Source: a virus
Lineage: Duplodnaviria > Caudoviricetes
IMG/VR virus record: IMGVR_UViG_3300016484_000638
Coordinates: 1-57,234 of that record
Strand: one strand, 5' to 3'
Length of the DNA: 57,234 bases
Below, in pieces: positions 3,493-57,233 of this stretch. The position numbers were made by a program, and so were the translations under genes. The notes below the pieces were generated by a model. It was not told the origin of the DNA and searched no databases. It saw only the letters and a list, made by a program, of their open reading frames with translations. Every line of letters begins with the position of its first letter. Position 1 is the stretch's first letter.

Positions 3493-3594
3493 TAGTCAGG
3501 ACAGGATTCGAACCTGTATGAGTGCCATTACTAAGATCTAGGACATACTCCAGGGCTTGTTTCCCTTGCGTCTACACTATTCCGCCACCTGACT
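3493..3594 (-). ncRNA. tRNA-like RNA (Leu-type D arm, aberrant anticodon arm, long variable region)
   Basis: AGTCAGG/CCTGACT acceptor; GCGGAATAGTGTAGACGC D arm; ACAGG-TTCGAAT-CCTGT T arm; loop AAACAAG lacks U33. Confidence 0.75.
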
Positions 3595-3698
3595 ATTTAC
3601 TTGTCTTTCCAAGTTGTCAAACAATTGTTAAAGCTAATTTAATAACCCAGCATTAATCTGTTAATAACCTCTACTCTGCATTGTTATGTCAGCAATCG

Positions 3699-3796
3699 TA
3701 GTCAGGACAGGATTCGAACCTGTATCATGTCGGCTAAGTGCCGTTTTTCGTATCACATAATAGATACTAAGTGCTAACCAATTACACCACCTAACT
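3699..3796 (-). ncRNA. tRNA-like RNA
   Basis: AGTTAGG/CCTGACT acceptor; T arm and 3' end identical to the 3493 copy; GTATC-TATTATGT-GATAC arm has an 8-nt loop. Confidence 0.75.
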
Positions 3797-15849: not shown

Positions 15850-15921
15850 TTTTTTTTGTTTTTAGTTTTTATAAAAAAAGGACTCTTTATTATATAAATA
15901 TAAAGAGCCCTTTAAAAATTG

Positions 15922-15989
15922 AGCGGGTGAATGGTTCGATACACTATCCTCTAACTGGAAGTCAGATACTTTCGTTAAGCTACACCCGC
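15922..15989 (-). tRNA. tRNA-Gly(TCC), degenerate D and T arms
   Basis: GCGGGTG/CACCCGC acceptor; TCTGA-CTTCCAG-TTAGA; U73. Confidence 0.65.
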
Positions 15990-16193
15990 TTGTATGGGTA
16001 ATCCTAAAATTACCCATTATATAAATTAACTTTGGAGTCTTTTTCTATATTTATGACTTCAGATATCATCCACGATCAATTACTAATCTTTCCGAATACC
16101 TAGTCTATTTTTTAACTTTTGTAGACTCTCTCGTTAAACAACAATACAATATTAGTACTTTAATTTTGAATTGTCAACAGGTTAAATAAAAAA

Positions 16194-42886: not shown

Positions 42887-42942
42887 AATACAAATATATG
42901 AAATTATTTAATACCAAATAATTTTTTATAAATATTTTATAG

Positions 42943-43013
42943 AGGCCCCGATTGGACTTGAACCAATGTAAGCGGTTTTGCAGACCGCCTCCTAACCACT
43001 CGGACACGGGACC
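42943..43013 (-). tRNA. tRNA-Cys(GCA)
   Basis: Full cloverleaf, loop CTGCAAA, U73. Confidence 0.95.
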
Positions 43014-43020
43014 TTAAATT

Positions 43021-43098
43021 TGGTGGATCGTAAGGGACTTGAACCCTTGACCCCCGCAGTGCAAATGCGGTGCTCTAGCCAATCTGAGCTAACAACCC
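43021..43098 (-). tRNA. tRNA-Ala(TGC)
   Basis: Cloverleaf, G3.U70, encoded CCA. Confidence 0.95.
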
Positions 43099-43109
43099 AT
43101 AATAACGTC

Positions 43110-43208
43110 GATAGGACTTAACTGGAACCTCTCATTTATATCCAATCATCAATAGGTAATTAACCCATACCAGGTGCATCCCAATTTTAACTGGGAATAT
43201 ATCCTATC
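43110..43208 (-). ncRNA. Unassigned structured RNA in tRNA operon
   Basis: Closing stem GATAGGAT/GTCCTATC; CCCAGTT/AATTGGG hairpin. Confidence 0.55.
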
Positions 43209-43213
43209 TATTG

Positions 43214-43284
43214 AGCGGGTAGATGGTAACTCTCCATCTTCCTCGGTTTGGAAGACCGACGCATTAATTTTATGCTATACCCGC
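43214..43284 (-). tRNA. tRNA-Gly(TCC), non-canonical D/T loops
   Basis: Perfect stems; D loop AAAATTA; T loop AGAGTTA. Confidence 0.85.
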
Positions 43285-43295
43285 AAATTGTGGGT

Positions 43296-43393
43296 AGGGG
43301 TCTCCCACGATAGACTTAAGGTTTCGGATTATTTAACGACAATTCCTAAATGTCAACCGCCCGCATGTCCTTCACCTTGAAGCGGGAACCCCT
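43296..43393 (-). ncRNA. Unassigned structured RNA overlapping HEG 3' end
   Basis: Closing stem AGGGGTTCCCGC/GTGGGAGACCCCT. Confidence 0.55.
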
Positions 43394-44204
43394 TATGATT
43401 TTTAATTTTATTTATAATATCTAATACCTCTATCTCATATTTTTTATTTAATAAAGGTTTAACCTTAAATCTTATTAATTTATATTTTTCTTTTATTATA
43501 TTTTCTCTAATTATTTCTTTTTCATTATTACTATCATGCCATCTTTCACCATCTATTTCGACACATAGATTAAGTTTTGGAAAAAAGAAATCCACATAAT
43601 AATTATTCACCTTAAATTGTTTAATAAAATCCTCACCATTGACCAACCCTTTTAAAACTAAAAATTCATTAAAAAATTTTTCAGGATATGTTTCCTTAAT
43701 TGAAGCACATCTTTTATTAGGATGCAGGTCTGGGTTTTTTTTATATCTTTCTTTGGCTATTATACTTAATTTTTCTTTAAAGATTTTTGAATTTTTAAGA
43801 CAACTTAAAGAACAATACTTTTGTTTATTTTTTTTAACTTTTTTACCACACTCAATACAATCTGTTCTAGGTAATTTATTATTATTTGGTATATTTTTAA
43901 GTGACTCACTTATTTTAATTTTGGTGAGTTGACTTTTTATTTTACCCTTATTATTATAACTAGCAGAACAACTATTATTACAAAAATTTCTATCTCTTGA
44001 TTCTAAATCAACAAAATCTTTACCACAATTTTTACAAATAAAATTTTTATAAAAATTTTTTCTAATAGATTTAATACCTAAACGATTACATCTATTAGTT
44101 ACTGAACTAATAGTTATATTCATTTTTTCAGAAATTTCTTTATAACTAAAACCATCTTTTATTAAAGATTTCAGTTCGTTATCTTTCTCTACAATCCATT
44201 TCAT
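43353..44204 (-). mobile_element. PD-(D/E)XK (Vsr/DUF559-like) homing endonuclease with Zn fingers
   Basis: YYVDFF...VEIDGERWH; CxxC..CxxxC repeats. Confidence 0.8.
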
Positions 44205-44270
44205 ATAAATAAATATCTCAAAATGAGTTAAAAAATATTCTTGAACCTATATTTTTGGTTATAGAACTTG

Positions 44271-44344
44271 AGAGGGTGATCGGGATCTAACCGACTCTAT
44301 TCCACATTGGCAATGTGGTGCACCAACATTTATGCGTCACCCTC
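44271..44344 (-). tRNA. tRNA-Gly(GCC), non-canonical elbow
   Basis: CCACA-TTGCCAA-TGTGG; T loop TTAGATC. Confidence 0.85.
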
Positions 44345-44350
44345 TTGTGT

Positions 44351-44443
44351 GGGTGGAGTCAGACGCGTTCTGTCCACCGAGACCGTAACTTGAATTTCTT
44401 CAGAGGTTAACGACACAAGATTTGTGGGAACCGCACCCCACCC
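44351..44443 (-). ncRNA. Unassigned multi-arm RNA
   Basis: GGGTGGGGT/ACTCCACCC closing stem; three internal hairpins. Confidence 0.55.
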
Positions 44444-44474
44444 TGAACTTGTACTTCGTTCTTTTAAGCGTTTT

Positions 44475-44551
44475 TGGCGGTCCTGATGGGACTCGAACCC
44501 ACGATCTCCGCCGTGACAGGGCGGCGTCCACTCCATCTGGACTGCAGGACC
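44475..44551 (-). tRNA. tRNA-Asp(GTC)
   Basis: Cloverleaf, G73, CCA. Confidence 0.95.
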
Positions 44552-44586
44552 TTTTATATCTTTATTAAGAAGTTCAGAAAAATGTT

Positions 44587-44721
44587 TTAAAAGTTAGCAT
44601 CTTTTTTTTTATTTGCTGAAATTTTTCTTTTTATCTTCTTTATTTTTCTTTCTAACCAATTGGTATGCTTTTTCCTTAATATATCCTTACTTGACTCTAA
44701 TTTACCTGTTAATACTTCCAT
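44587..44721 (-). CDS. 44-aa Lys-rich ORF inside tRNA operon
   Basis: MEVLTGK...KKDANF*. Confidence 0.4.
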   Translation of the reverse strand: MEVLTGKLESSKDILRKKHTNWLERKIKKIKRKISANKKKDANF

Positions 44722-44747
44722 TCTTAATTTCTCTCTCTTTATTTCTG

Positions 44748-44828
44748 TGGGAGAAGAGGGACTCGAACCCCCAAGGCTTTCGCGACAGATTTACAGTCTG
44801 CTGAGCCAACCAATTGCTCAACTCTCCC
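44748..44828 (-). tRNA. tRNA-Tyr(GTA)
   Basis: Cloverleaf with variable arm. Confidence 0.95.
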
Positions 44829-44834
44829 TTATTG

Positions 44835-44909
44835 TGTCCCCGATAGGGTTCGAACCTATGACCCCTCCATTAAAAGTGGAGTGCTCTAAACCAACTGAGC
44901 TACGAAGAC
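44835..44909 (-). tRNA. tRNA-Lys(TTT)
   Basis: Cloverleaf, loop CTTTTAA. Confidence 0.95.
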
Positions 44910-44929
44910 GTTATTAATATTATGACAAT

Positions 44930-44963
44930 AAAAAAACCCCAACTAATTCTTTAGTCAGGGTTT
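44930..44963 (-). terminator. Attenuator terminator of tRNA operon A
   Basis: AACCCTGACTAA-AGAA-TTAGTTGGGGTTTTTTT just upstream of tRNA-Lys. Confidence 0.85.
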
Positions 44964-44990
44964 CATGTATAATTTTATATTTATAAAATA

Positions 44991-45080
44991 CTATACAGAC
45001 ATATTCTGACCATTTAAGATGTAATCACATCCTTTGTCGGCTTTCGCGTCACAACCTTTATATGTTTTATAGTTTTTCAT
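44991..45080 (-). CDS. Leader peptide A: MKNYKTYKGCDAKADKGCDYILNGQNMSV
   Basis: Lies between promoter and terminator; K/Y/G/C/D/A rich, matching downstream tRNAs. Confidence 0.85.
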   Translation of the reverse strand: MKNYKTYKGCDAKADKGCDYILNGQNMSV

Positions 45081-45109
45081 GTTTATAATATTGTTTATCT
45101 TTAAATATG

Positions 45110-45142
45110 ATACAAAGATAGTAAAAGTTTTACAATTGTCAA
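45110..45142 (-). promoter_or_regulatory. Promoter of tRNA operon A
   Basis: TTGACAATTGTAAAACTTTTACTATCTTTGTA. Confidence 0.75.
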
Positions 45143-45159
45143 GTATTTTTATTTTTTTT

Positions 45160-45570
45160 TTAATTTTTTCTCCCCCACGAGTAATGAACAATGGTTCCGT
45201 TTATATATTCTTTCCAGTATTTATTCCATGGTCCAGAAAATAATAGGGTACAACAACCATTACTATTAGCAATTCTATGGTAACAATTTCTTGGGAAGAA
45301 TTTTATAAACTGGGTTCTTCTTTCAACATGGAAATCACCAGTTAATTCATCATCCAATATGTGTTCATCATATTCACCAAACAATTTAAAAGATAGTGCG
45401 TTAAATGCATGTGTATGAAACCTATCTTGTGGTTTGTTTGATTTATGAAAATAAAAAAATATGATTGAACCCAACCATTTACACTCAAATACTACAAATT
45501 GAGTTACTTTCTGCTCACCAAACTCAAATCTATTGAGTCTTAAAAATGAAATATAATCCGTCTTTATCAC
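45160..45570 (-). CDS. Cupin-like protein
   Basis: FHTHAF...GEYDE...YHRI...TLLFSGP. Confidence 0.65.
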   Translation of the reverse strand: MIKTDYISFLRLNRFEFGEQKVTQFVVFECKWLGSIIFFYFHKSNKPQDRFHTHAFNALSFKLFGEYDEHILDDELTGDFHVERRTQFIKFFPRNCYHRIANSNGCCTLLFSGPWNKYWKEYINGTIVHYSWGRKN

Positions 45571-45596
45571 GGAATATAAAACTAAGGTTTTTTAAC

Positions 45597-46385
45597 TTAA
45601 TGGTCAAGTTTTAAATTAAAATATTCTCTTCCATCTATAATTTCTGGCTCGTCAAAATTTTCACTACGTTCTACATATCTTTCTGCATCACCCATTAAAT
45701 CATACCAATCTCTAACCTTATTTCTTTTATTAGATGCACCAAAAACCACCCTACCATTTAAACCTATCACTAAATGGTGTAAATATTTGTAAGTTAAAAA
45801 AGGTTTTAAAGTTACTATACCACCTTGAGCACAATAAAGACCTTCATCAGAATTTAATAATGTATTTAAAACAACATTATATTCGTCCTCTGTAATCAAT
45901 GGTTCAAATTTAATTATCTTGTTTTTAAATGATGGGTTAGTGTTAATAATCCAATCTAAATCTTCAGATTCATTTAATCTATCGTTAAAAATGTGATTTA
46001 ATTTATATTGTATATATGGTTTGCCTTCTAAATCTTTTCTAACATCAAGATATTTATTTTCATAAAATATAAGTTTATTATCACCATAGCCAATTCTTCT
46101 TACATTATACTGATTTATAAAAAATCTAATATATGCTGACCCATTTTTAGAATATTTTAAAAGACTTCTAATAAATTGTTGCCTACTATCACCCATTCTC
46201 GTATTTACTTGGGTAAGCATGTCGTATAGCTGACCCAGTTCTGATTCAGTGGTTGATTCATCTAGCCACACAACAACTAATGGATCATCAGTCATAAACG
46301 GGTTAGGTGCCTCCATATTAATCCAATCAAAATCATCCATTTCTTCTTCTTTTATAATTTTTTTAATATTCTTTCTTAATATCAT
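45597..46385 (-). CDS. ILKE/DW-tag two-module protein
   Basis: KKIIKEEEMDDFDW; internal LNESEDLDW. Confidence 0.7.
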   Translation of the reverse strand: MILRKNIKKIIKEEEMDDFDWINMEAPNPFMTDDPLVVVWLDESTTESELGQLYDMLTQVNTRMGDSRQQFIRSLLKYSKNGSAYIRFFINQYNVRRIGYGDNKLIFYENKYLDVRKDLEGKPYIQYKLNHIFNDRLNESEDLDWIINTNPSFKNKIIKFEPLITEDEYNVVLNTLLNSDEGLYCAQGGIVTLKPFLTYKYLHHLVIGLNGRVVFGASNKRNKVRDWYDLMGDAERYVERSENFDEPEIIDGREYFNLKLDH

Positions 46386-46500
46386 TTAATCCTTTTTTTC
46401 TGTTGCATATTTAATACCCATAATAGTTCCAACTATTGAAAAGGAAAACTACCATCAAAAATACTGATGAATATAATAACAATTTACGGTTTTTAGTCAT
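46386..46500 (-). pseudogene. Probable deleted/frameshifted small membrane gene
   Basis: MTKNRKLLLY.. in one frame; SFSIVGTIMGIKYATEKKD* in another, abutting next ATG. Confidence 0.35.
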
Positions 46501-46537
46501 ATTAATAAATATGCTAAAAAATTATAAACAGAAAAAG

Positions 46538-47263
46538 TTATTTTTTTTTGTGTTTATAATTTAAGTCTTTAAAGCACAGTATTGAGATTAATAAACCCAT
46601 AAATAATAGAATTAAGGCTATAGTCTTATATGTGTCACCAGAAGTGGATAAATTAAAATTCCATAAACCGTGATAAGTTACAGATGTTACAAACCCGATT
46701 AAACTAAAAATAAAAACTTTAAAATTTTTCTTTTTATTCACAAGTATACTGAAAATACTTTTACCGTTAGGTGTTGGTTTTTTTAATTTACTTAATCCGA
46801 TCCAATAACCAAATATAAATCCAGAAATGATATGGGCAATGGTTGATGTTACGGATCTAATAGGTATAATATATGGACCATATGATAAACCATATTGTAT
46901 GTTTTCAAATATAGAAAAACCTAAACCAAGCATACCAAAATATATCATAGTACTAAGTGGATGGTTTTTATCACTAATTAAATAAGATAATATAACAAAG
47001 GCAATTAATTTAGATAACTCTTCTTTTGTCGCAGTAACTAAAAAGTCATTATAAAAATGATTATTCCCCAACATTACCCAACCTGGTAAATTTAAAAAAA
47101 TAAAACTCAATATTAAAACTGATAATATACCACCAAAAATATATTGTATAGTTTTAGAAAATTTTATTGTACCATAAGGTAATATTGTGTAAAGTATTAA
47201 AATATAAGCATAAGCCGGCATTAATGATAATATAGTACAAACTGTTAAAATTGTTAAATCCAT
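46538..47263 (-). CDS. PrsW-family intramembrane glutamic protease
   Basis: EELSK, GFSIFENIQY, AH, YHGLWN; multiple TMs. Confidence 0.85.
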   Translation of the reverse strand: MDLTILTVCTILSLMPAYAYILILYTILPYGTIKFSKTIQYIFGGILSVLILSFIFLNLPGWVMLGNNHFYNDFLVTATKEELSKLIAFVILSYLISDKNHPLSTMIYFGMLGLGFSIFENIQYGLSYGPYIIPIRSVTSTIAHIISGFIFGYWIGLSKLKKPTPNGKSIFSILVNKKKNFKVFIFSLIGFVTSVTYHGLWNFNLSTSGDTYKTIALILLFMGLLISILCFKDLNYKHKKK

Positions 47264-47279
47264 ATACAAATATAATGAA

Positions 47280-47741
47280 TTAAAATTGTGAAACAAAATT
47301 ATCCATAACCATAGTGAATTCATTAATTTCATTAAATTCATAATCAATCTGAAAATCCCGTAAACTACAACCAATTAAAATCCATTGTGATATTACAGAC
47401 CCTAAAGGATCTATTGACATTAACGTTGCGTTAATTTTTCTACCGTAAATATTGTCTTGGTAGTTAACCCAACTATTTAAATCTCCACTTCTGATAACCT
47501 CTCTAATTATTACTCTGATAGGATTAATCTCCATAAGGCGAAAATTTCTACCCATTTCACCAAAATAACCATAATCAAAATTAGAACGACTTATTCTAGG
47601 TATCTCACTATCAACAAAATATTCACCATACGGACCTAAATCTAAAATATACCTATGTCTGTACATAGGTTCTTGTAAAATTCTTAATCCAGTTCGTTCT
47701 TTAAAATTATTTAATTTCTTAATATATTTTTTTGGTTGCAT
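47280..47741 (-). CDS. Tail-tube (gp19)-like divergent protein
   Basis: EP..HRYIL; 'SIDPLGSVISQWILIGC'. Confidence 0.45.
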   Translation of the reverse strand: MQPKKYIKKLNNFKERTGLRILQEPMYRHRYILDLGPYGEYFVDSEIPRISRSNFDYGYFGEMGRNFRLMEINPIRVIIREVIRSGDLNSWVNYQDNIYGRKINATLMSIDPLGSVISQWILIGCSLRDFQIDYEFNEINEFTMVMDNFVSQF

Positions 47742-47849
47742 GTTATAACATTAATTTATTTTTTTAGATTATAAATGATATTTATTTATAAATATTAAAA
47801 TGGAGGATGATGTTTTTGATGATACTTTTTGGCACCCAGACCAATCTTT

Positions 47850-48365
47850 ATGAAAAAATTTATTAAAAAAATATTAAAAGAAGATTTTGATTGGATAGAT
47901 GATATACCGTCATTTATTGAAATCACTGAACCAGTTACTCAAAGTAACCCCAAAGACATATTTAGATTATATTGGACAAATGAACACTACACTGGTGACT
48001 ATGGTGTATGGTCTGACGATTGGTATGGTTTTAAAAATGATTCTAATGGTGTTAATAATTTAACAAGATATGTTAAAATATTACAAAATGGTTTAGATGA
48101 CAGAACCAATGAATTTGATTTTGATTTATTAGTAGATTTATATTTTAATCAAGGTCATAGTTATATAGCCACTGATTTTATGAAACGTGAACTTTCTAAT
48201 GAGGACTACACAGATAAAAAACATATTTTATCTCAAATGTTAAAAGATGATTTAAATGACTTGGGTATTTTCAACTGGGGTGGTGGTGTTACATTAGAGA
48301 GGTGGAAAGTAACTTACTTCGACGAAAATGGTATAGAGTTTAACACAAAAATCAATAATATATAG
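47850..48365 (+). CDS. ILKE/DW-tag protein
   Basis: MKKFIKKILKEDFDW. Confidence 0.7.
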   Translation: MKKFIKKILKEDFDWIDDIPSFIEITEPVTQSNPKDIFRLYWTNEHYTGDYGVWSDDWYGFKNDSNGVNNLTRYVKILQNGLDDRTNEFDFDLLVDLYFNQGHSYIATDFMKRELSNEDYTDKKHILSQMLKDDLNDLGIFNWGGGVTLERWKVTYFDENGIEFNTKINNI

Positions 48366-48439
48366 TACACCTGGGAGGATTTGAACCTCCAACCTTTTGT
48401 TCCGTATACAAACGCTCTGTCCAGTTGAGCTACAAGTGT
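48366..48439 (-). tRNA. tRNA-Arg(ACG)
   Basis: Cloverleaf, loop ATACGGA. Confidence 0.9.
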
Positions 48440-48443
48440 GTGG

Positions 48444-48505
48444 GGTACACAAACACGGGAAATGTCGACCACTTCCCTGACTCTCTCGTCTTAGTTAGGT
48501 ATACC
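48444..48505 (-). ncRNA. Small structured spacer RNA
   Basis: GGTATAC/GTGTACC closing stem; GGGAAGTG/CATTTCCC hairpin. Confidence 0.45.
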
Positions 48506-48512
48506 TTTTAAG

Positions 48513-48596
48513 CGGAAAGCAGTGGCCCTGATCCACATACAGTTTCCCGTACCAACAACTTAGCAGGTTGTGCCTACCCTGGTAGATTTACTTTCC
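48513..48596 (-). tRNA. tRNA-Ser(GCT), 8/4 fold
   Basis: GGAAAGTA/TGCTTTCC, T stem GTGG/CCAC, loop CTGCTAA, G73. Confidence 0.8.
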
Positions 48597-48604
48597 ATTA
48601 ATTG

Positions 48605-48678
48605 CACGCCTGGATGGATTCGAACCACCAACACTCGGATTTGGAATCCGATGCTCTACCAATTGGAGCTACAGACGC
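48605..48678 (-). tRNA. tRNA-Trp(CCA)
   Basis: Cloverleaf, loop TTCCAAA. Confidence 0.95.
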
Positions 48679-48688
48679 GTTTATAAAG

Positions 48689-48762
48689 TAGTTATGGAGG
48701 GAGTTGAACCCCCGACCTTTTGAGTATCAGTCAAATGCTCTAACCAACTGAGCTACATAACT
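48689..48762 (-). tRNA. tRNA-Ile(GAT)
   Basis: Cloverleaf, loop CTGATAC. Confidence 0.95.
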
Positions 48763-48816
48763 ATTGTAAGACTATCTAAACTCCAAATGAGAACTTCGTC
48801 TTTTTTAGTTTTTTAG

Positions 48817-48903
48817 CTGATGGGGTGGGATTCGAACCCACGGTGGAGTATAACTCACCAGATTAACAGTCTGAACCCTTCGGCCAACTCGGGACACCCA
48901 TCA
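48817..48903 (-). tRNA. tRNA-Asn(GTT) with long variable arm
   Basis: TGATGGG/CCCATCA-G; loop CTGTTAA; 16-nt variable arm. Confidence 0.85.
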
Positions 48904-48917
48904 TTATTATTTTTTAG

Positions 48918-49000
48918 CGGAAGACGAGGGAATCGAACCCCCAAAGCTTTTACACCCAGCCGCTTTCAAGGCGGTGTCCTCGTCCATTCGGGCGCCTTCC
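48918..49000 (-). tRNA. tRNA-Ser(TGA)
   Basis: Loop CTTGAAA, variable arm, G73; can fold 8/4. Confidence 0.85.
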
Positions 49001-49012
49001 GTATTTTATTTG

Positions 49013-49084
49013 AGCCATAAGTCTGAATCGAACAGACGACCTCTTCCCTACCAAGGAAGTGCTCTGCCTCTGAGCTACAAACAC
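49013..49084 (-). tRNA. tRNA-Thr(GGT), chimeric with broken acceptor stem
   Basis: Loop TTGGTAG; 5' strand GTGTTTG identical to that of tRNA-His. Confidence 0.7.
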
Positions 49085-49089
49085 CATTT

Positions 49090-49731
49090 TTATTTTCTAC
49101 CTTTAACCCAATTTTCATTTAAGTAGGTTTCAAGGTCTTCTTTTTTAATCTTTTTGTTGATACCATCTTTAGTTATCCAACATGTACCGAATTGACTGTT
49201 TGTTTCACCAACTCCAGTACCTTTTCTTATTTCAGACATCAACTGTTTTGTTTCTTCTGAATGAGTTTTACCATTCCAATCATAATTAACATATCTATCA
49301 ATTTTACCTTCTTCATATGCTTTTTTAATCGATTTAGACAATGTATCACTTTTTTTCTTAACCCATTCTGGGTCTTGTCTTAAAAGCTTTTGTTTTTCAT
49401 TTGATTTAATCACATTTAATTTTTGTTGTTCCGAGCTAAACCCACCAGTACCACCTTCTCTAAGGTTCATACACATAGGGTTTTCCACTAATTCTTTATT
49501 AACAATTTCAATCTCTCTAAGAACTAACTCTTCTCTTGTTGGTGAAAACTCCAGTATTTCTTTAGTATGGTTTTCTACACCATATTTTCTAATTGAATAT
49601 CTAAGTCGTTTACCACTACCCATATAATTATCTTCTAAGTTATACGTACTATGCATCCCAACATAGTATCTTCCAGTTACATTACATGTTGTTTTATAGA
49701 TGTAATGAATATTTCTTTTTTTTCTTGCCAT
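49090..49731 (-). mobile_element. GIY-YIG (Seg-like) homing endonuclease
   Basis: YIYKTT..YYVGMH..YMGSG..CMNL..GG; NUMOD3; SQFGTCWIT. Confidence 0.85.
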
Positions 49732-49791
49732 TTTTACTTCTTTCTAAATAAATATCTAGAAATTTGTAAAAAGTACAAAAAAGTTTAAGAG

Positions 49792-49866
49792 GGTGAATGG
49801 TGGGAATCGAACCCACGACCTCTTGAACCACAATCAAGCACTCTAACCAACTGAGCTACAAACACC
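49792..49866 (-). tRNA. tRNA-His(GTG)
   Basis: G-1, C73, loop TTGTGGT; two U.U mismatches in acceptor stem. Confidence 0.9.
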
Positions 49867-49872
49867 ATAAAT

Positions 49873-49908
49873 AAAAAACCCGACTAGTTTTGAATTAGTC
49901 GGGTTTTT
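49873..49908 (-). terminator. Attenuator terminator of tRNA operon B
   Basis: AAAAACCCGACTA-ATTCAAAAC-TAGTCGGGTTTTTT just upstream of tRNA-His. Confidence 0.85.
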
Positions 49909-49928
49909 ATAATCTTAGATGAGTAATG

Positions 49929-50030
49929 TTACATTCCTGTACCACCTTCACAATTATACGTACCCGACACATGGTGACTATTGCGTCCCCAATTCGAAAT
50001 CGAAATCATATGTACATTAATTGTTTTCAT
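49929..50030 (-). CDS. Leader peptide B: MKTINVHMISISNWGRNSHHVSGTYNCEGGTGM (not in ORF track)
   Basis: Lies between promoter and terminator; T/I/N/H/S/W/R rich, matching downstream tRNAs. Confidence 0.85.
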   Translation of the reverse strand: MKTINVHMISISNWGRNSHHVSGTYNCEGGTGM

Positions 50031-50047
50031 CTTGTTTATAAATATAC

Positions 50048-50079
50048 TACAAATATAGTAAAAGTTTTTTAATTGTCAA
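50048..50079 (-). promoter_or_regulatory. Promoter of tRNA operon B
   Basis: TTGACAATTAAAAAACTTTTACTATATTTGTA. Confidence 0.75.
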
Positions 50080-50080
50080 T

Positions 50081-50548
50081 TTATTTTTGACTTTTTTTAT
50101 CTTCAGGTTTTAAAGAAATGATTAAATCTCTAATTTTAGCGGCATCTTCATATTTTTCTTCCTGGATTGCCTTATTAAGTTTAGACTCCAATAATTTAAC
50201 TGTGTCCATTTCTTGATTTCTTTCCCTACCTTCTGGACCAAAAAAGTTTTTCTTATAATATCTATAGTTCCTAGAACCATCTGGTGAAGACCAATTTTTT
50301 GATTCCCAAGAACCGTTATCATCTAAACCTTTATCTTCGTTAAATTCGTTAGGCATTTGTCCAAAGAAGTTTTTAATAAAACTATCCTCATCCATAGGTT
50401 TCATAAACCCAAACCTACTATTCATATCTGGTTGACCGTACATATCTCTCATAAAGTTATTCATTCCAGACTGATACATGTTTAAAATTCTGATAAACTC
50501 TTTTCTAAATTCATCATCACTCATGTTATTAAATCCAAATTCTTCCAT
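50081..50548 (-). CDS. UvrB/UvrC-motif protein
   Basis: LNKAIQEEKYEDAAKIRD. Confidence 0.75.
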   Translation of the reverse strand: MEEFGFNNMSDDEFRKEFIRILNMYQSGMNNFMRDMYGQPDMNSRFGFMKPMDEDSFIKNFFGQMPNEFNEDKGLDDNGSWESKNWSSPDGSRNYRYYKKNFFGPEGRERNQEMDTVKLLESKLNKAIQEEKYEDAAKIRDLIISLKPEDKKSQK

Positions 50549-50593
50549 ACTTTTTTTTATTATAAATATAATACAGAATTAAATTTTGTCAAT

Positions 50594-50832
50594 AAAAAAC
50601 CCTAGCAGTTTCTGTTGATCAAACAGTCTTACTAGGGTGTGATAATGGTTATAAGGTCGAACAAGTATGTCACGTCTGACAGATATTGTAGCGGGTCCAA
50701 TTTCCCAACATCTAAAAAGACCATCTAAGTGAGCGGATCTTACGGGACGCCCGATGGTTCTTGGCCTGCAAATACTATCTACAGGGGGGGGTGTAAAAGA
50801 CCTATTCTGGTACGCTGTTCTTATGGGTAGCG
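50594..50832 (-). ncRNA. Putative ~240-nt multi-hairpin RNA
   Basis: ATATTTAT motif upstream, several GC-rich hairpins, terminal ACCCTAGTA..TGCTAGGGT-TTTT. Confidence 0.55.
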
Positions 50833-50871
50833 TAATAGGTACTATTATTTTAATAATAAATATATTAAAAT

Positions 50872-50930
50872 GAGATAAACACGGGCCTAACTAGCCATCT
50901 TTCAGGAAAGGCCCTTCTAGTGTCTACCTC
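50872..50930 (-). ncRNA. Hairpin after tRNA-fMet
   Basis: GAGGTAGACAC/GTGTTTATCTC and GGGCCT/AGGCCC. Confidence 0.45.
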
Positions 50931-50934
50931 TTAG

Positions 50935-51009
50935 TAGCGGGGACAGGATTCGAACCTGTGATCTCTAGGTTATGAGCCTAGCGGGTTGACCAGCTACCAC
51001 TACCCCGCG
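50935..51009 (-). tRNA. tRNA-Met(CAT), initiator-like
   Basis: CGCGGGG with C1 x U72 mismatch; loop CTCATAA. Confidence 0.9.
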
Positions 51010-51507
51010 ATAATATTCTTTCATACGCTCTGATTGTTCATCTCTTTTAGATTTATCAGACCATCTTTGTTTTGCCTTTTCAGCTATCTTCTTTTTAGTT
51101 TCTTCAGATATGCCTCTTCTTCTATTAGACTCTGAAATTTTTTTTCTAGTTTCTTCTGAATGCTTTCTACCTTTTTGCATTTCAGAAAGTTTCTTTTTAG
51201 TTTCTTCTGAATGTTTTAAACCACTAAAATGTGGTCCACCCTCACCACCTAAACCAGTATTGTAAGTTTTATTTGTAGAAATAAATAATTCATTTACGAT
51301 TTCTTTTTCTTTATCATTCATTTCTTTTTCATTATCAAAAATGTACAATACTTCTTTTTTAAAATTTTCTTTACCGTATTGTTTTATAACATTTTTAATG
51401 ACTTTCCCACTACCAAAGTAGTTATCATAAGGATTGTTTGTTTGGTGCTTTCCAATATATGTTTTATCATTTAATTTATTAGTCACCTTATATATTGTAT
51501 ATTTCAT
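50965..51507 (-). mobile_element. GIY-YIG (Seg-like) homing endonuclease reading into tRNA-fMet
   Basis: TIYKVTN..YIGKH..YFGSG; C-terminus RGVVVAGQPARLIT is the tRNA 5' half. Confidence 0.85.
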
Positions 51508-51535
51508 ACATATAAATATACGGTAAGTAAATAAA

Positions 51536-51565
51536 CTAACGAGATACCAACTTCTCCACCCCACA
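51536..51565 (-). pseudogene. Stranded 5' half of a tRNA-fMet allele
   Basis: TGTGGGGTGGAGAAGTTGGTATCTCGTTAG. Confidence 0.75.
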
Positions 51566-51573
51566 ATATATTG

Positions 51574-51866
51574 TATCTAAGGAAGGATTCGAACCTCCAC
51601 GGACTTAATCAAAACTAGGTTTTTTTCAGTCCATACGTTTTACAAGAATTTAAGGATTTAATCTCATCTATTAAATCTATCTATCTTTATAATTATAAGT
51701 TGTCACGTTTGGGTTAAAGAGTAACGTAACCAAACCTCTTAACTAGTCTAATTTAGAGACCAATAAGGTTAGCTAATCCTAAAGTCTTTTTGGGTTTTTA
51801 TAGAACTCCCAATCTAACCTTAGACTCTCTTCAAACGTAAGCGTCTACCAATTCCGCCACTTAGAT
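51574..51866 (-). ncRNA. tRNA-scaffold RNA with ~190-nt insertion in place of anticodon loop
   Basis: ATCTAAG/CTTAGAT-A; TGGCGGAATTGGTAGACGC; TACGTTT/AAACGTA; GGAGG-TTCGAAT-CCTTC. Confidence 0.75.
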
Positions 51867-51882
51867 ATTTTAAAAAACTTTA

Positions 51883-52542
51883 TTACAAAATAGTCCTACC
51901 CATTGACCAACCAACTGGTATGCTATCTGATTTTTTTATTTTTTTATTTTCAAATCCATTAGTTATCCAACAAGTCCCAAATTGGGAGTTATTTTCTCCT
52001 TTTTGTTTGATTGAATTTTTCTCACCTATCTTTTTTTTAGATTCTTCTTTGTGTTTTTTACCATAAAAGGTACCTTCTTTAATTTTTAAATTTTTTTTTA
52101 ATCCAAAACTAATAGATTTTTTCCAAAAATCAACCCACTCACTATTATTTTCTCTAAGAAATTTCATAGTTTTATGACTATTTTTTGTTGCTTGTTTTTG
52201 AGACAAGTTTAATGACTCAATAAATTTTTTTCTATGTTCCTCACCACTAAAACCACCATCACCACCTAATTTAAGGTTCATACAAAGTTCTTCAGATAAT
52301 AATTGTTCATTAACAATTTCTTTTTCTCTTTTTTTTAATTCTTTTCTGTTTTTTAAAAACTCAAGAATTTTTTTTGTATGATTTTCCTTTCCATGATAAT
52401 TAATAGAATACCATAATCTCTTTCCACTACCTAAGTATCCATCTTCCAAATTATCAGTAGAATGCATTCCTATGTAGTATTTCCCATTTACATTACAAGT
52501 TGTTTTATAAATGTAATGATATTTCTTTTGCCTTCTCGCCAT
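51883..52542 (-). mobile_element. GIY-YIG (Seg-like) homing endonuclease, paralog of 49090
   Basis: YIYKTTCNV..YYIGMH..YLGSG. Confidence 0.85.
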
Positions 52543-52590
52543 ATCTATACTTTATATATAAATATGACGAGAAGGTACAAAAGTTCCAGG

Positions 52591-52700
52591 TACACAAGGA
52601 AGGATTCGAACCTCCAAAACCTACTTTCATCGCCCCTAGGGGAGATTACTTTTCGGTTAGAGTTGTTACACTCCGTGTTTACCAATTTCACCACTTGCGT
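52591..52700 (-). ncRNA. tRNA-like RNA
   Basis: ACGCAAG/CTTGTGT-A; Leu-type D arm; GAGT-GTAACA-ACTC 6-nt loop; variable region >40 nt. Confidence 0.7.
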
Positions 52701-52711
52701 ATATATTAAAA

Positions 52712-52927
52712 AAATGACTTACCTATTACAACACCCGTACTCGTCAGACTTAGTGAATTCGTCTTTCAGAGGTCTGTACTTGTTTCTTTCCGATTTGATT
52801 TCTAATCCTTATCAGTTATAACTTTTCTCCCAGTGTCCGTATTGTTTGTACAACTATCCGTCCCCCAAGGGTTGGGTCATTCGCGTGAAGGTGAGCTAAC
52901 CATCTTATTGAATAGGTTAAATCATTT
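52712..52927 (-). ncRNA. Putative ~215-nt structured RNA
   Basis: Closing stem AAATGATTTAACCTATT/AATAGGTAAGTCATTT after promoter and boxA-like motif. Confidence 0.6.
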
Positions 52928-52934
52928 TTATGTT

Positions 52935-52944
52935 TTCAAAGAAC
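52935..52944 (-). promoter_or_regulatory. boxA-like motif
   Basis: GTTCTTTGAA. Confidence 0.5.
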
Positions 52945-53005
52945 GTTTTCTTTAATTGTTTAACAAATATAGTAACTTTTTTCTGATTAGTCAAATATTT
53001 TTTAA

Positions 53006-57159: not shown

Positions 57160-57233
57160 TAGGGATAGTAGGAATTGAACCCACGACCTTAACGATATAA
57201 GCGTTCTGCTCTCACCAACTGAGCTATATCCCC
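57160..57233 (-). tRNA. tRNA-Ile(TAT)
   Basis: Cloverleaf, loop CTTATAT, A73. Confidence 0.85.

Follow-up and report, generated by a model that had tools for sequence, protein, structure and literature searches.

Transcription attenuation by leader peptides is a familiar means of controlling amino acid biosynthesis. In the trp, his, and ilv leaders, stalling of the ribosome on codons whose charged transfer RNA (tRNA) is scarce leads to read-through into the biosynthetic operons. Multivalent leader attenuators, which respond to more than one amino acid, occur in enterobacterial amino acid operons such as ilvGMEDA (Ile, Leu, and Val) and thrL (Thr and Ile), alongside trpL, hisL, pheL, and leuL. 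In E. coli, attenuation through the pheM leader controls the phenylalanyl-tRNA synthetase operon pheST. The pheL leader is treated in PMC3082878. In mycobacteria, polycysteine leaderless short open reading frames (sORFs) act as attenuators according to one preprint (bioRxiv 10.1101/834739), and the toxin VapC4 cleaves tRNA-Cys with stalling of ribosomes at Cys codons according to another source (PMC13096801). Here, we describe two tRNA arrays, A and B, in a 57-kb contig of an uncultured freshwater phage (57,234 nucleotides (nt); IMG/VR record IMGVR_UViG_3300016484_000638), which was analyzed as the whole sequence of its record and is referred to as the window. Each array is preceded by a promoter, a short open reading frame (ORF) named leader A or leader B, and an intrinsic terminator. 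Judged from its sequence, each of these units probably controls a tRNA operon through ribosome-mediated (leader-peptide) transcription attenuation, by which tRNA supply would be fed back onto tRNA transcription.

As in the attenuators of amino acid operons, the promoter is separated from the first gene by a short ORF whose control codons represent several amino acids, and this ORF is followed by an intrinsic terminator whose 5' arm can pair with an ORF-distal strand, an arrangement in which the position of the ribosome would decide the outcome. Unlike the amino acid operon attenuators, the phage units would control tRNAs rather than biosynthetic enzymes, the product being the sensed molecule. 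In addition, the phage leaders sample 6-17 amino acids, mostly with 1-5 codons each and not in runs, they match synonymous codons to the anticodons of the operon, and they follow a promoter of the TAnnTTTG type. With pheST/pheM the phage units would share the placing of a translation-apparatus gene under a leader peptide that senses charged tRNA, but pheST is a cellular operon, its leader concerns a single amino acid, and what is controlled is a protein enzyme. T-box riboswitches also set terminator read-through according to tRNA status, but they bind uncharged tRNA directly via a specifier codon and the T-box sequence, whereas the sensor in the phage units would be the translated ORF. Rfam searches detected no T-box in the window at the gathering score, or in 42900-50100 at E<=0.1, and no amino acid leader family (His, Trp, Thr, Leu, etc.) in the window at the gathering score. 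The only leader-type match in 42900-50100 at E<=0.1 was a sub-threshold hit to the Pseudomonas rnk leader (28.7 bits versus a cut-off of 55). The mycobacterial Cys-rich sORFs, as the two sources describe them, similarly read the depletion of one tRNA via ribosome stalling in a codon-rich short upstream ORF, but they serve cellular stress regulons, respond to one amino acid, and control no tRNA genes. In full-text literature searches, supplements excluded, we found no account of leader peptides or attenuators ahead of tRNA genes. The logic is that of known multivalent leader attenuation; what differs is the tRNA target, the breadth (up to 17 amino acids), the synonymous matching, and the phage setting.

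All elements of both units are on the minus strand (Table 1). A 25-nt promoter pattern, TTGACAATTNNAAAACTTTTACTAT, has exactly two matches in the window, at 45142..45118 and 50079..50055, both on the minus strand, with 0 expected as assessed by 100 shuffles. A looser class, TTGAC-N16-22-TAnnTTTG, has only three sites in the 57 kb (52994, 50079, and 45142), all on the minus strand and all ahead of tRNAs. We take the TAnnTTTG element to be the -7 box of Bacteroidota promoters. Leader A (MKNYKTYKGCDAKADKGCDYILNGQNMSV) starts 33 nt and leader B (MKTINVHMISISNWGRNSHHVSGTYNCEGGTGM) 20 nt downstream of the promoter motif; the ATG-started ORF of leader A is nested in a longer, TTG-started frame. The gap between ORF and terminator hairpin is 27 nt (A) or 22 nt (B), and the first tRNA begins 25 nt past terminator A (tRNA-Lys) or 11 nt past terminator B (tRNA-His). 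Terminator B was missed by a first scan, in which loops were limited to <=8 nt, and was detected with a hairpin and T-run script. The pattern, ORF, and hairpin searches agree on the layout that a preliminary description of this DNA had proposed for both arrays, i.e. a near-identical promoter, an ORF of 29 or 33 codons, a terminator, and the first tRNA. Since there is no space for a second promoter between terminator and first tRNA, the arrays would be reachable only via read-through of the terminator.

The leaders are enriched in the amino acids of their own arrays (set A and set B). Excluding the initial Met, 18 of the 28 residues of leader A belong to set A and 6 to set B, whereas leader B has 19 of 32 in set B and 8 in set A (Fisher p=0.0019 for the 2x2 comparison of the two window leaders, [[18,6],[8,19]]). 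Restricted to codons 2-21, a cut-off picked after inspection, the comparison becomes [[17,3],[2,15]] with p=1e-5. The earlier claim that the leaders are built from own-array amino acids thus applies to the first ~20 codons and fails for the last 9-13. At the codon level, own-array anticodons can read, under simple wobble, 17 of the 28 codons of leader A and 16 of the 32 of leader B. In leader A, five AAA codons fit Lys-UUU, while GGT fits Gly-GCC and GGA fits Gly-UCC. In leader B, ATT fits Ile-GAU, TCG fits Ser-UGA, AGT fits Ser-GCU, and CGC fits Arg-ACG, with further fits of TGG to Trp, CAY to His, and AAT to GUU.

Several routes to relatives carrying the same layout were followed. Among 24 loci related to a neighboring gene of 136 amino acids (aa), none had an adjoining tRNA array, the arrays of those records being elsewhere; a neighboring 155-aa gene had no relatives, the window-specific promoter pattern had no match in IMG/VR, and a DNA search of the whole 7.2-kb region against cultured phages matched only tRNA genes. 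A search for tRNAs in the records of relatives, followed by inspection of the regions, showed that the layout recurs in three large uncultured phages. The pattern TTGACN7AAACTTTTNNTANNTTTGTA was found in 29 IMG/VR stretches and 59 metagenome stretches. Defining the full layout as an ORF of 15-45 aa, a terminator, and then a tRNA, we found it at 33 of 34 sites in viral and fetched loci, a set that includes regions fetched twice, and at 40 of 61 metagenome sites. The 21 metagenome failures comprise 13 sites with <450 nt of contig past the promoter, 6 promoter-like sites with long ORFs, and 2 partial layouts. Across 73 units, leaders are 24-40 aa long and the stop codon lies 20-34 nt from the terminator stem (median 26).

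The content of these leaders follows their arrays. A 318-kb relative has four units, in which (i) a leader starting MKNWHNISSIHSNRINSS precedes His, three Asn, Ile, Trp, Ser, Ser, Ile(UAU), and Arg; (ii) a leader A homologue with two extra CCG codons precedes Tyr, Pro, Asp, Gly, Ala, Cys, and Lys; (iii) a leader of T, L, F, V, Q, and M precedes Gln, Phe, Thr, Val, Leu, Leu, and Met; and (iv) a leader with AGA GAG GAG AGA GAA precedes Glu(UUC) and Arg(UCU). A different relative has a leader of 36 residues that lacks A, D, E, and G, and its array consists of 17 tRNAs for exactly the remaining amino acids; a second leader of the same relative (...LLGADLEAGD...) precedes Leu, Gly, Ala, Glu, Asp, and Met, so that the four tRNA types missing from the first array are all in the second. 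Leader A homologues have CCG codons exactly where the array holds Pro(UGG), and in the MKTTMTYK leader family Glu codons are restricted to units with Glu(UUC). The cultured Cellulophaga phage phi4:1_13 (KT962245.1) is an independent lineage with such units. Two leader-terminator units precede its tRNA arrays, both with a stop-to-stem distance of 25 nt: one leader (MKIQRLHLQELEQP..., with CGT, TTA, CTA, and CCG codons) precedes Pro, Glu, Gln, His, Leu(UAG), Leu(UAA), and Arg(ACG), and the second, which has AGA, precedes Ala, Lys, Ile, Gly, Met, Asp, Thr, Val, Arg(UCU), Met, and Tyr. A third block in this phage (Ser, Ser, Asn, Trp, and Phe) has no leader.

To quantify this covariation, we kept 13 non-redundant units of 20 distinct ones, dropping the close variants L052, L043, L044, L059, L053, L041, and L055-542. 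The Thr-like gene of array B was added by hand, as were two L025 units missed by the promoter regular expression. Own-array amino acids account for 288 of 419 leader residues, versus 189 (sd 15.6, max 261) with permuted arrays, and 0 of 200,000 permutations reached 288; 250 codons are readable by own-array anticodons, versus 157.8 +/- 14.1 when permuted, with 0 of 100,000 reaching 250. Because the units share ancestry, these permutation figures overstate independence and are not true probabilities; the signal recurs across leader families without common sequence. With proteome composition as the reference, the Fisher-combined p of the own-array match was 2e-22. The match amounts to 0.69 in the leader frame, the remaining five frames give 0.40-0.46, and the arrays of other units set the baseline at 0.43. 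By position, it is 0.85-1.00 at codons 9-18 and 0.31-0.62 over the last 11 codons. Among 47 distinct leaders, with the last ten codons excluded, the presence of a residue is associated with that of the corresponding array tRNA for 18 of 19 amino acids, and a tRNA type held by the array is almost never absent from the leader. The exception is Thr, which occurs in nearly every leader.

Synonymous codons follow the arrays as well. Leaders ahead of arrays with only Arg UCU/CCU anticodons have 15 AGR and 1 CGN codons, and those ahead of arrays with only ACG have 4 AGR and 15 CGN (p=2e-5). The Leu codon class also follows the anticodon (p=0.021), as does ATA with Ile(UAU) (p=0.029), while the Ser codon class does not reach significance (p=0.089). 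For tRNAs with U34, NNG makes up 43 of 100 leader codons versus 17.3 expected from the long ORFs of the phages (p=2e-9). The preference for a final G is seen for TCG (10/11) and CCG (7/8), and also for CAG, GAG, GGG, and GTG, in the window and loci L025-L059, although, with some positions homologous from one leader to another, this count overstates independence. Such a surplus of G-ending codons at U34 tRNAs is a possible hint of sensor design. Taken together, these comparisons uphold the prediction that leader content covaries with array content in relatives beyond permuted controls, and they support an attenuation reading in that the match is frame-specific and leader codons are gained and lost together with array tRNAs, as seen for Pro, Glu, the AGA and CGN codons of Arg, and ATA with Ile(UAU).

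The same data bear on whether the small ORFs might be ordinary small-protein genes, or small RNAs (sRNAs) with their own terminator, with the arrays transcribed via constitutive leak-through and the codon match incidental. Leader A homologues do keep some residue order (e.g. ...DKGCD...NSVS), some leaders are Cys-rich, one family looks hydrophobic in the manner of a membrane helix, and the second phi4:1_13 leader is annotated as hypothetical protein Phi4113_075, the start of which is probably wrong. However, composition tracks the downstream array across unrelated leader families down to synonymous codons, which the function of a peptide cannot explain. Moreover, the match is confined to one frame, the 10-25 nt between terminator and first tRNA in the window offer no space for a separate promoter, and, instead of the constraint independent of downstream genes that would mark a stand-alone small protein or sRNA, leader content changes with the array. 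We regard this explanation as very improbable.

We next consider how the leaders could act on the terminators. The 3' part of each ORF contains a strand complementary to the 5' arm of its terminator (AUGGUCAGA in codons 23-26 of leader A, UGUCGGGUA in codons 21-24 of leader B). As assessed with 1000 dinucleotide shuffles, the duplex is -9.6 kcal/mol versus -6.0 +/- 1.8 in A (p=0.038) and -13.4 kcal/mol versus -8.6 +/- 1.8 in B (p=0.015), which bears out the pairing noticed earlier in both units. The best partner of the terminator 5' arm is in about the distal third of the ORF (codons 16-33) in 12 of 12 units, with a combined p=2e-6. Across 34 units with differing arms, the preference of a leader for its own terminator arm over those of the 33 other units was matched in 0 of 100,000 permutations. 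Contigs from three further public runs differ in terminator A at two positions, 44953 A>G plus 44944 T>C, by which a U-A pair becomes C-G; this compensatory change leaves antiterminator pairing possible. The strain comparison used Logan contigs of four DNA runs, and the variants are those among the rows listed. A look for RNA runs that contain the stretch found none.

Folding of the free full-length leader gives terminator B a probability of 0.92. The behavior expected at the moment of decision was explored using a kinetic-style model, in which the terminator 3' arm is omitted and 30 nt around the A site of the ribosome are blocked. In this model, the leader A strand pairs with the terminator arm at a probability of 0.5-0.6 as long as the A site lies within codons 1-19; from codon 20, exactly where the matched codons end, up to the stop, the probability is 0.1-0.2. 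For leader B, pairing is 0.6-0.7 at codons 1-16 and zero at codons 18-28. In the Glu/Arg unit of the relatives, the modelled switch falls on codon 18, with which the R-E-E-R-E-R block ends, and the Glu/Arg and Gln/Phe/Thr/Val/Leu units both switch within codons 18-20. For most units modelled in this way, the switch comes at the expected codon. Untranslated RNA is predicted to favor the antiterminator in A (0.59) and B (0.65), so the default of these two units would be "on", while in two units of relatives the free RNA favors termination (0.21 and 0.06). We do not claim thermodynamic bistability, a candidate property that was dropped because equilibrium folding with the whole terminator shows a switch in only 1 of 11 units.

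We propose the following mechanism. Host RNA polymerase would initiate at the strong promoter and transcribe a leader of 24-40 codons, of which codons ~4 to 20 would serve as a sampler of the codons read by the downstream tRNAs. When all sampled codons are decoded fast, the ribosome would enter the last third of the ORF and cover the strand able to pair with the terminator 5' arm, so that the terminator hairpin would form, with its stem 20-34 nt past the stop codon, and transcription would stop 10-25 nt before the first tRNA. When any sampled codon is decoded slowly, its tRNA being scarce, the ribosome would be held upstream, the 3' strand of the ORF would pair with the terminator 5' arm, and this antiterminator pairing would let polymerase read into the array. 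Because the array products would speed up the sampled codons, the result would be negative feedback on tRNA supply, separate for each array. The anatomy, the correspondence of codons and anticodons, its frame and position, the complementarity, and the conservation in many phages are shown here; we infer that the leaders are translated, that the hairpins terminate, and what the sign of the response and its physiological trigger are.

The response could have the opposite sign. Fast translation would then keep the ribosome near polymerase and suppress the terminator, abundant tRNA would raise array transcription, and slow decoding would lead to termination. Codon matching alone leaves the sign unfixed, and the stop codon is kept tightly 20-34 nt from the terminator stem. 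According to PMC4824070, a terminator a few bp after a gene is repressed by the translating ribosome, and efficiency rises with distance, which would favor this model. However, such a model needs no antiterminator, yet the 3' third of the ORF is specifically complementary to the 5' arm of its own terminator. In addition, the matched codons end just where the ribosome would start to cover the antiterminator strand. Ribosome footprints reach ~12-15 nt downstream of the A site, and the 20-34 nt gap is out of reach of a ribosome at the stop codon. We consider the opposite sign unlikely.

A different question is what the attenuator would measure. The signal might be amino acid starvation, i.e. uncharged tRNA, rather than the amount of tRNA. 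Since the ribosome senses charged tRNA, starvation would likewise stall it and give read-through, as in the amino acid operons. On the other hand, a shortage of amino acid is not remedied by extra tRNA, which makes selection for such a response hard to envisage, and the matching to the anticodons of the phage itself, including wobble NNG codons, points to the tRNA pool as the measured quantity. Starvation as the signal is in our view scarcely probable and, since additional tRNA would leave it unrelieved, makes the least sense among the triggers considered (starvation, anticodon nucleases, and supply feedback). More speculatively, the units might act as a phage "tRNA-stat" and inducible counter-defense, in which an array is switched on when its isoacceptors are short, wobble probes (TCG, CCG, CAG, and GAG) measure the U34 tRNA itself, and the division of arrays into separately sensed groups lets only the missing group be replaced; we put this forward tentatively, as a minority possibility. 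Under it, the shortage could stem from anticodon nucleases of the host, from host tRNA decay that the phage induces, or from a phage codon demand that does not match the host pool.

Besides the shared ancestry of the units, several observations weigh against attenuation by leader peptides as proposed here. Leader A contains 10 non-matching residues out of 28 and leader B 13 out of 32, and three residues, K, N, and T, are found in the N-terminal region of nearly every leader irrespective of its array (p=0.042, 0.038, and 1, respectively). In leader B the claimed amino acid match breaks down for Thr, whose codons (ACA, ACG, and ACA) are not decoded by anticodon GGU. Many arrays of the relatives are cut by contig ends. 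Individual duplex tests are weak, with p<0.05 in 5 of 12 units and p>0.45 in 3. When the complete terminator is present, equilibrium folding favors it in 10 of 11 units almost regardless of where the ribosome stands, a result expected for strong terminators and no evidence for a switch; the switch is visible only with the terminator 3' arm omitted, which assumes kinetic control. In the model, one unit of a relative (L027) shows no dependence on ribosome position, and the leader B strand is re-exposed with the A site at codons 29-stop (the last 6 positions), where pairing is 0.4-0.6. Termination with the ribosome near the stop codon of leader B would need timing or a competing upstream pairing, the latter seen only in the full-length minimum free energy fold. 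Finally, a third array in the window has a promoter of the same class (52994) and neither leader nor terminator, so that the proposed layout holds for arrays A and B and not for every array.

Table 1. Features of units A and B in the window, and corresponding units of phage phi4:1_13
Feature	Position	Strand	Basis or remark
Promoter B (TTGACA, 16-17 nt spacer, TAnnTTTG)	50050..50079	minus	exact pattern; 11/12 in sigma-70 scan
Leader ORF B, 33 codons + stop	49929..50030	minus	ORF list
Putative sensor block of leader B, codons 4-20 (I N v H m I S I S N W g R N S H H)	49971..50021	minus	codon choice fits isoacceptors
Candidate antiterminator 5' strand B, codons 21-24	49961..49969	minus	complementary to 5' arm of terminator
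Intrinsic terminator B, 11-pair stem, 9-nt loop, U tract	49870..49906 (hairpin 49906..49876)	minus	hairpin + T-run script
Array B as a whole	48366..49865	minus	ARAGORN, Rfam, PHROGs
tRNA-His(GUG)	49865..49792	minus	array B
GIY-YIG homing endonuclease ORF	49731..49090	minus	within array B; PHROGs phrog_314, E=6e-37
tRNA-Thr(GGU)-like	49084..49013	minus	array B
tRNA-Ser(UGA)	49000..48917	minus	array B
tRNA-Asn(GUU)	48903..48816	minus	array B
tRNA-Ile(GAU)	48762..48689	minus	array B
tRNA-Trp(CCA)	48678..48605	minus	array B
tRNA-Ser(GCU)	48596..48512	minus	array B
tRNA-Arg(ACG)	48439..48366	minus	array B
Promoter A (class as promoter B)	45113..45142	minus	pattern match + sigma-70 scan
Leader ORF A, 29 codons + stop	44991..45080	minus	ATG at 45080
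Putative sensor block of leader A, codons 2-20	45021..45077	minus	K, Y, G, C, D or A = 17/19 residues
Candidate antiterminator 5' strand A, codons 23-26	45005..45013	minus	complementary to 5' arm of terminator
Intrinsic terminator A, 13-14 pair stem, 4-nt loop, U tract	44927..44964 (hairpin 44964..44933)	minus	hairpin scans
Array A as a whole	42942..44909	minus	ARAGORN, Rfam, PHROGs
tRNA-Lys(UUU)	44909..44835	minus	array A
tRNA-Tyr(GUA)	44828..44748	minus	array A
tRNA-Asp(GUC)	44551..44478	minus	array A
tRNA-Gly(GCC)	44346..44270	minus	array A
HNH-like endonuclease ORF	44204..43353	minus	within array A; PHROGs HNH endonuclease, E=2e-8
tRNA-Gly(UCC)	43284..43213	minus	array A
tRNA-Ala(UGC)	43098..43021	minus	array A
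tRNA-Cys(GCA)	43013..42942	minus	array A
phi4:1_13 leader-terminator unit	KT962245.1 1960-2081		
phi4:1_13 leader-terminator unit	KT962245.1 2920-3055		

The tRNAs were called using ARAGORN with default and relaxed settings and using Rfam; three of those in arrays A and B need relaxed ARAGORN. The Thr-like gene of array B was detected by Rfam only (42.4 bits) and misfolded by ARAGORN at a very low threshold. Its anticodon GGU was read by eye, its acceptor stem is poor in our own reading, and its first 18 nt are identical to tRNA-His. In contigs of three other runs, 49008-49783, which comprises the GIY-YIG endonuclease and the Thr-like tRNA, is skipped and 17 other letters are present instead. 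Together, the Thr-like gene and the endonuclease look like a mobile insertion that leader B does not yet "know". The tRNA at 48816-48903 (minus), with the only GUU anticodon of array B, is 88 nt long and has a long variable arm; by its sequence, it appears to be a class II body, as in Ser, Leu, and Tyr tRNAs, with an Asn anticodon. Four spacers between tRNAs (43099-43212, 43285-43352, 44347-44477, and 48440-48511) are G+C-richer, adjoin the endonuclease ORFs, and have no Rfam match. Among the 10 window proteins submitted to PHROGs, only the two homing endonucleases and one cupin-like protein were named.

Other tRNA loci of the window are organized differently from arrays A and B. The third block (50560-52994, minus) has ~230 nt of G+C-richer sequence ahead of its first tRNA-like gene, and GIY-YIG-type ORFs (52542..51883 and 51564..50965) are interleaved with its tRNA-like genes. 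Two of these genes, at 52700..52589 and 51866..51573, are read by ARAGORN only with introns, and a tRNA-Met lies at 51009..50935. It is followed by ~330 nt of G+C-rich, apparently structured sequence (50595-50930, minus), with no Rfam match at E<=0.1, which ends in a terminator-like hairpin directly before the next promoter at 50592. An Ile(UAU) gene lies outside arrays A and B at 57233..57160. A lone tRNA at 15989..15922 (minus; locus 15850-16180) scores 43.6 bits with Rfam and is missed by ARAGORN; a TTGACAATT... promoter-like site lies ~190 nt upstream and a strong terminator directly after it, and no leader ORF was seen at this locus. At 3493-3796 (minus), there are two oversized tRNA-like genes of 98-102 nt (Rfam 36-42 bits), one of which has a 4-letter "anticodon" according to ARAGORN.

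The purpose and expression of phage tRNA genes have been argued over for decades. Hypotheses (PMC10264068) include codon compensation, the substitution of host tRNA that has been degraded, and evasion of defenses that cleave tRNA. If the reading of the units as leader-peptide attenuators is true, the phage would measure decoding speed for each group of tRNAs and supply tRNAs on demand, and the reach of leader-peptide attenuation would go beyond amino acid biosynthesis to include the decoding machinery, in a form where the product is also the signal. The leaders would offer a sequence-only read-out of which tRNAs share one transcription unit, and the sensor codons chosen would reveal what the phage regards as limiting codons. 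As the layout also occurs in the cultured Cellulophaga phage phi4:1, the idea is directly testable in a phage-host pair.

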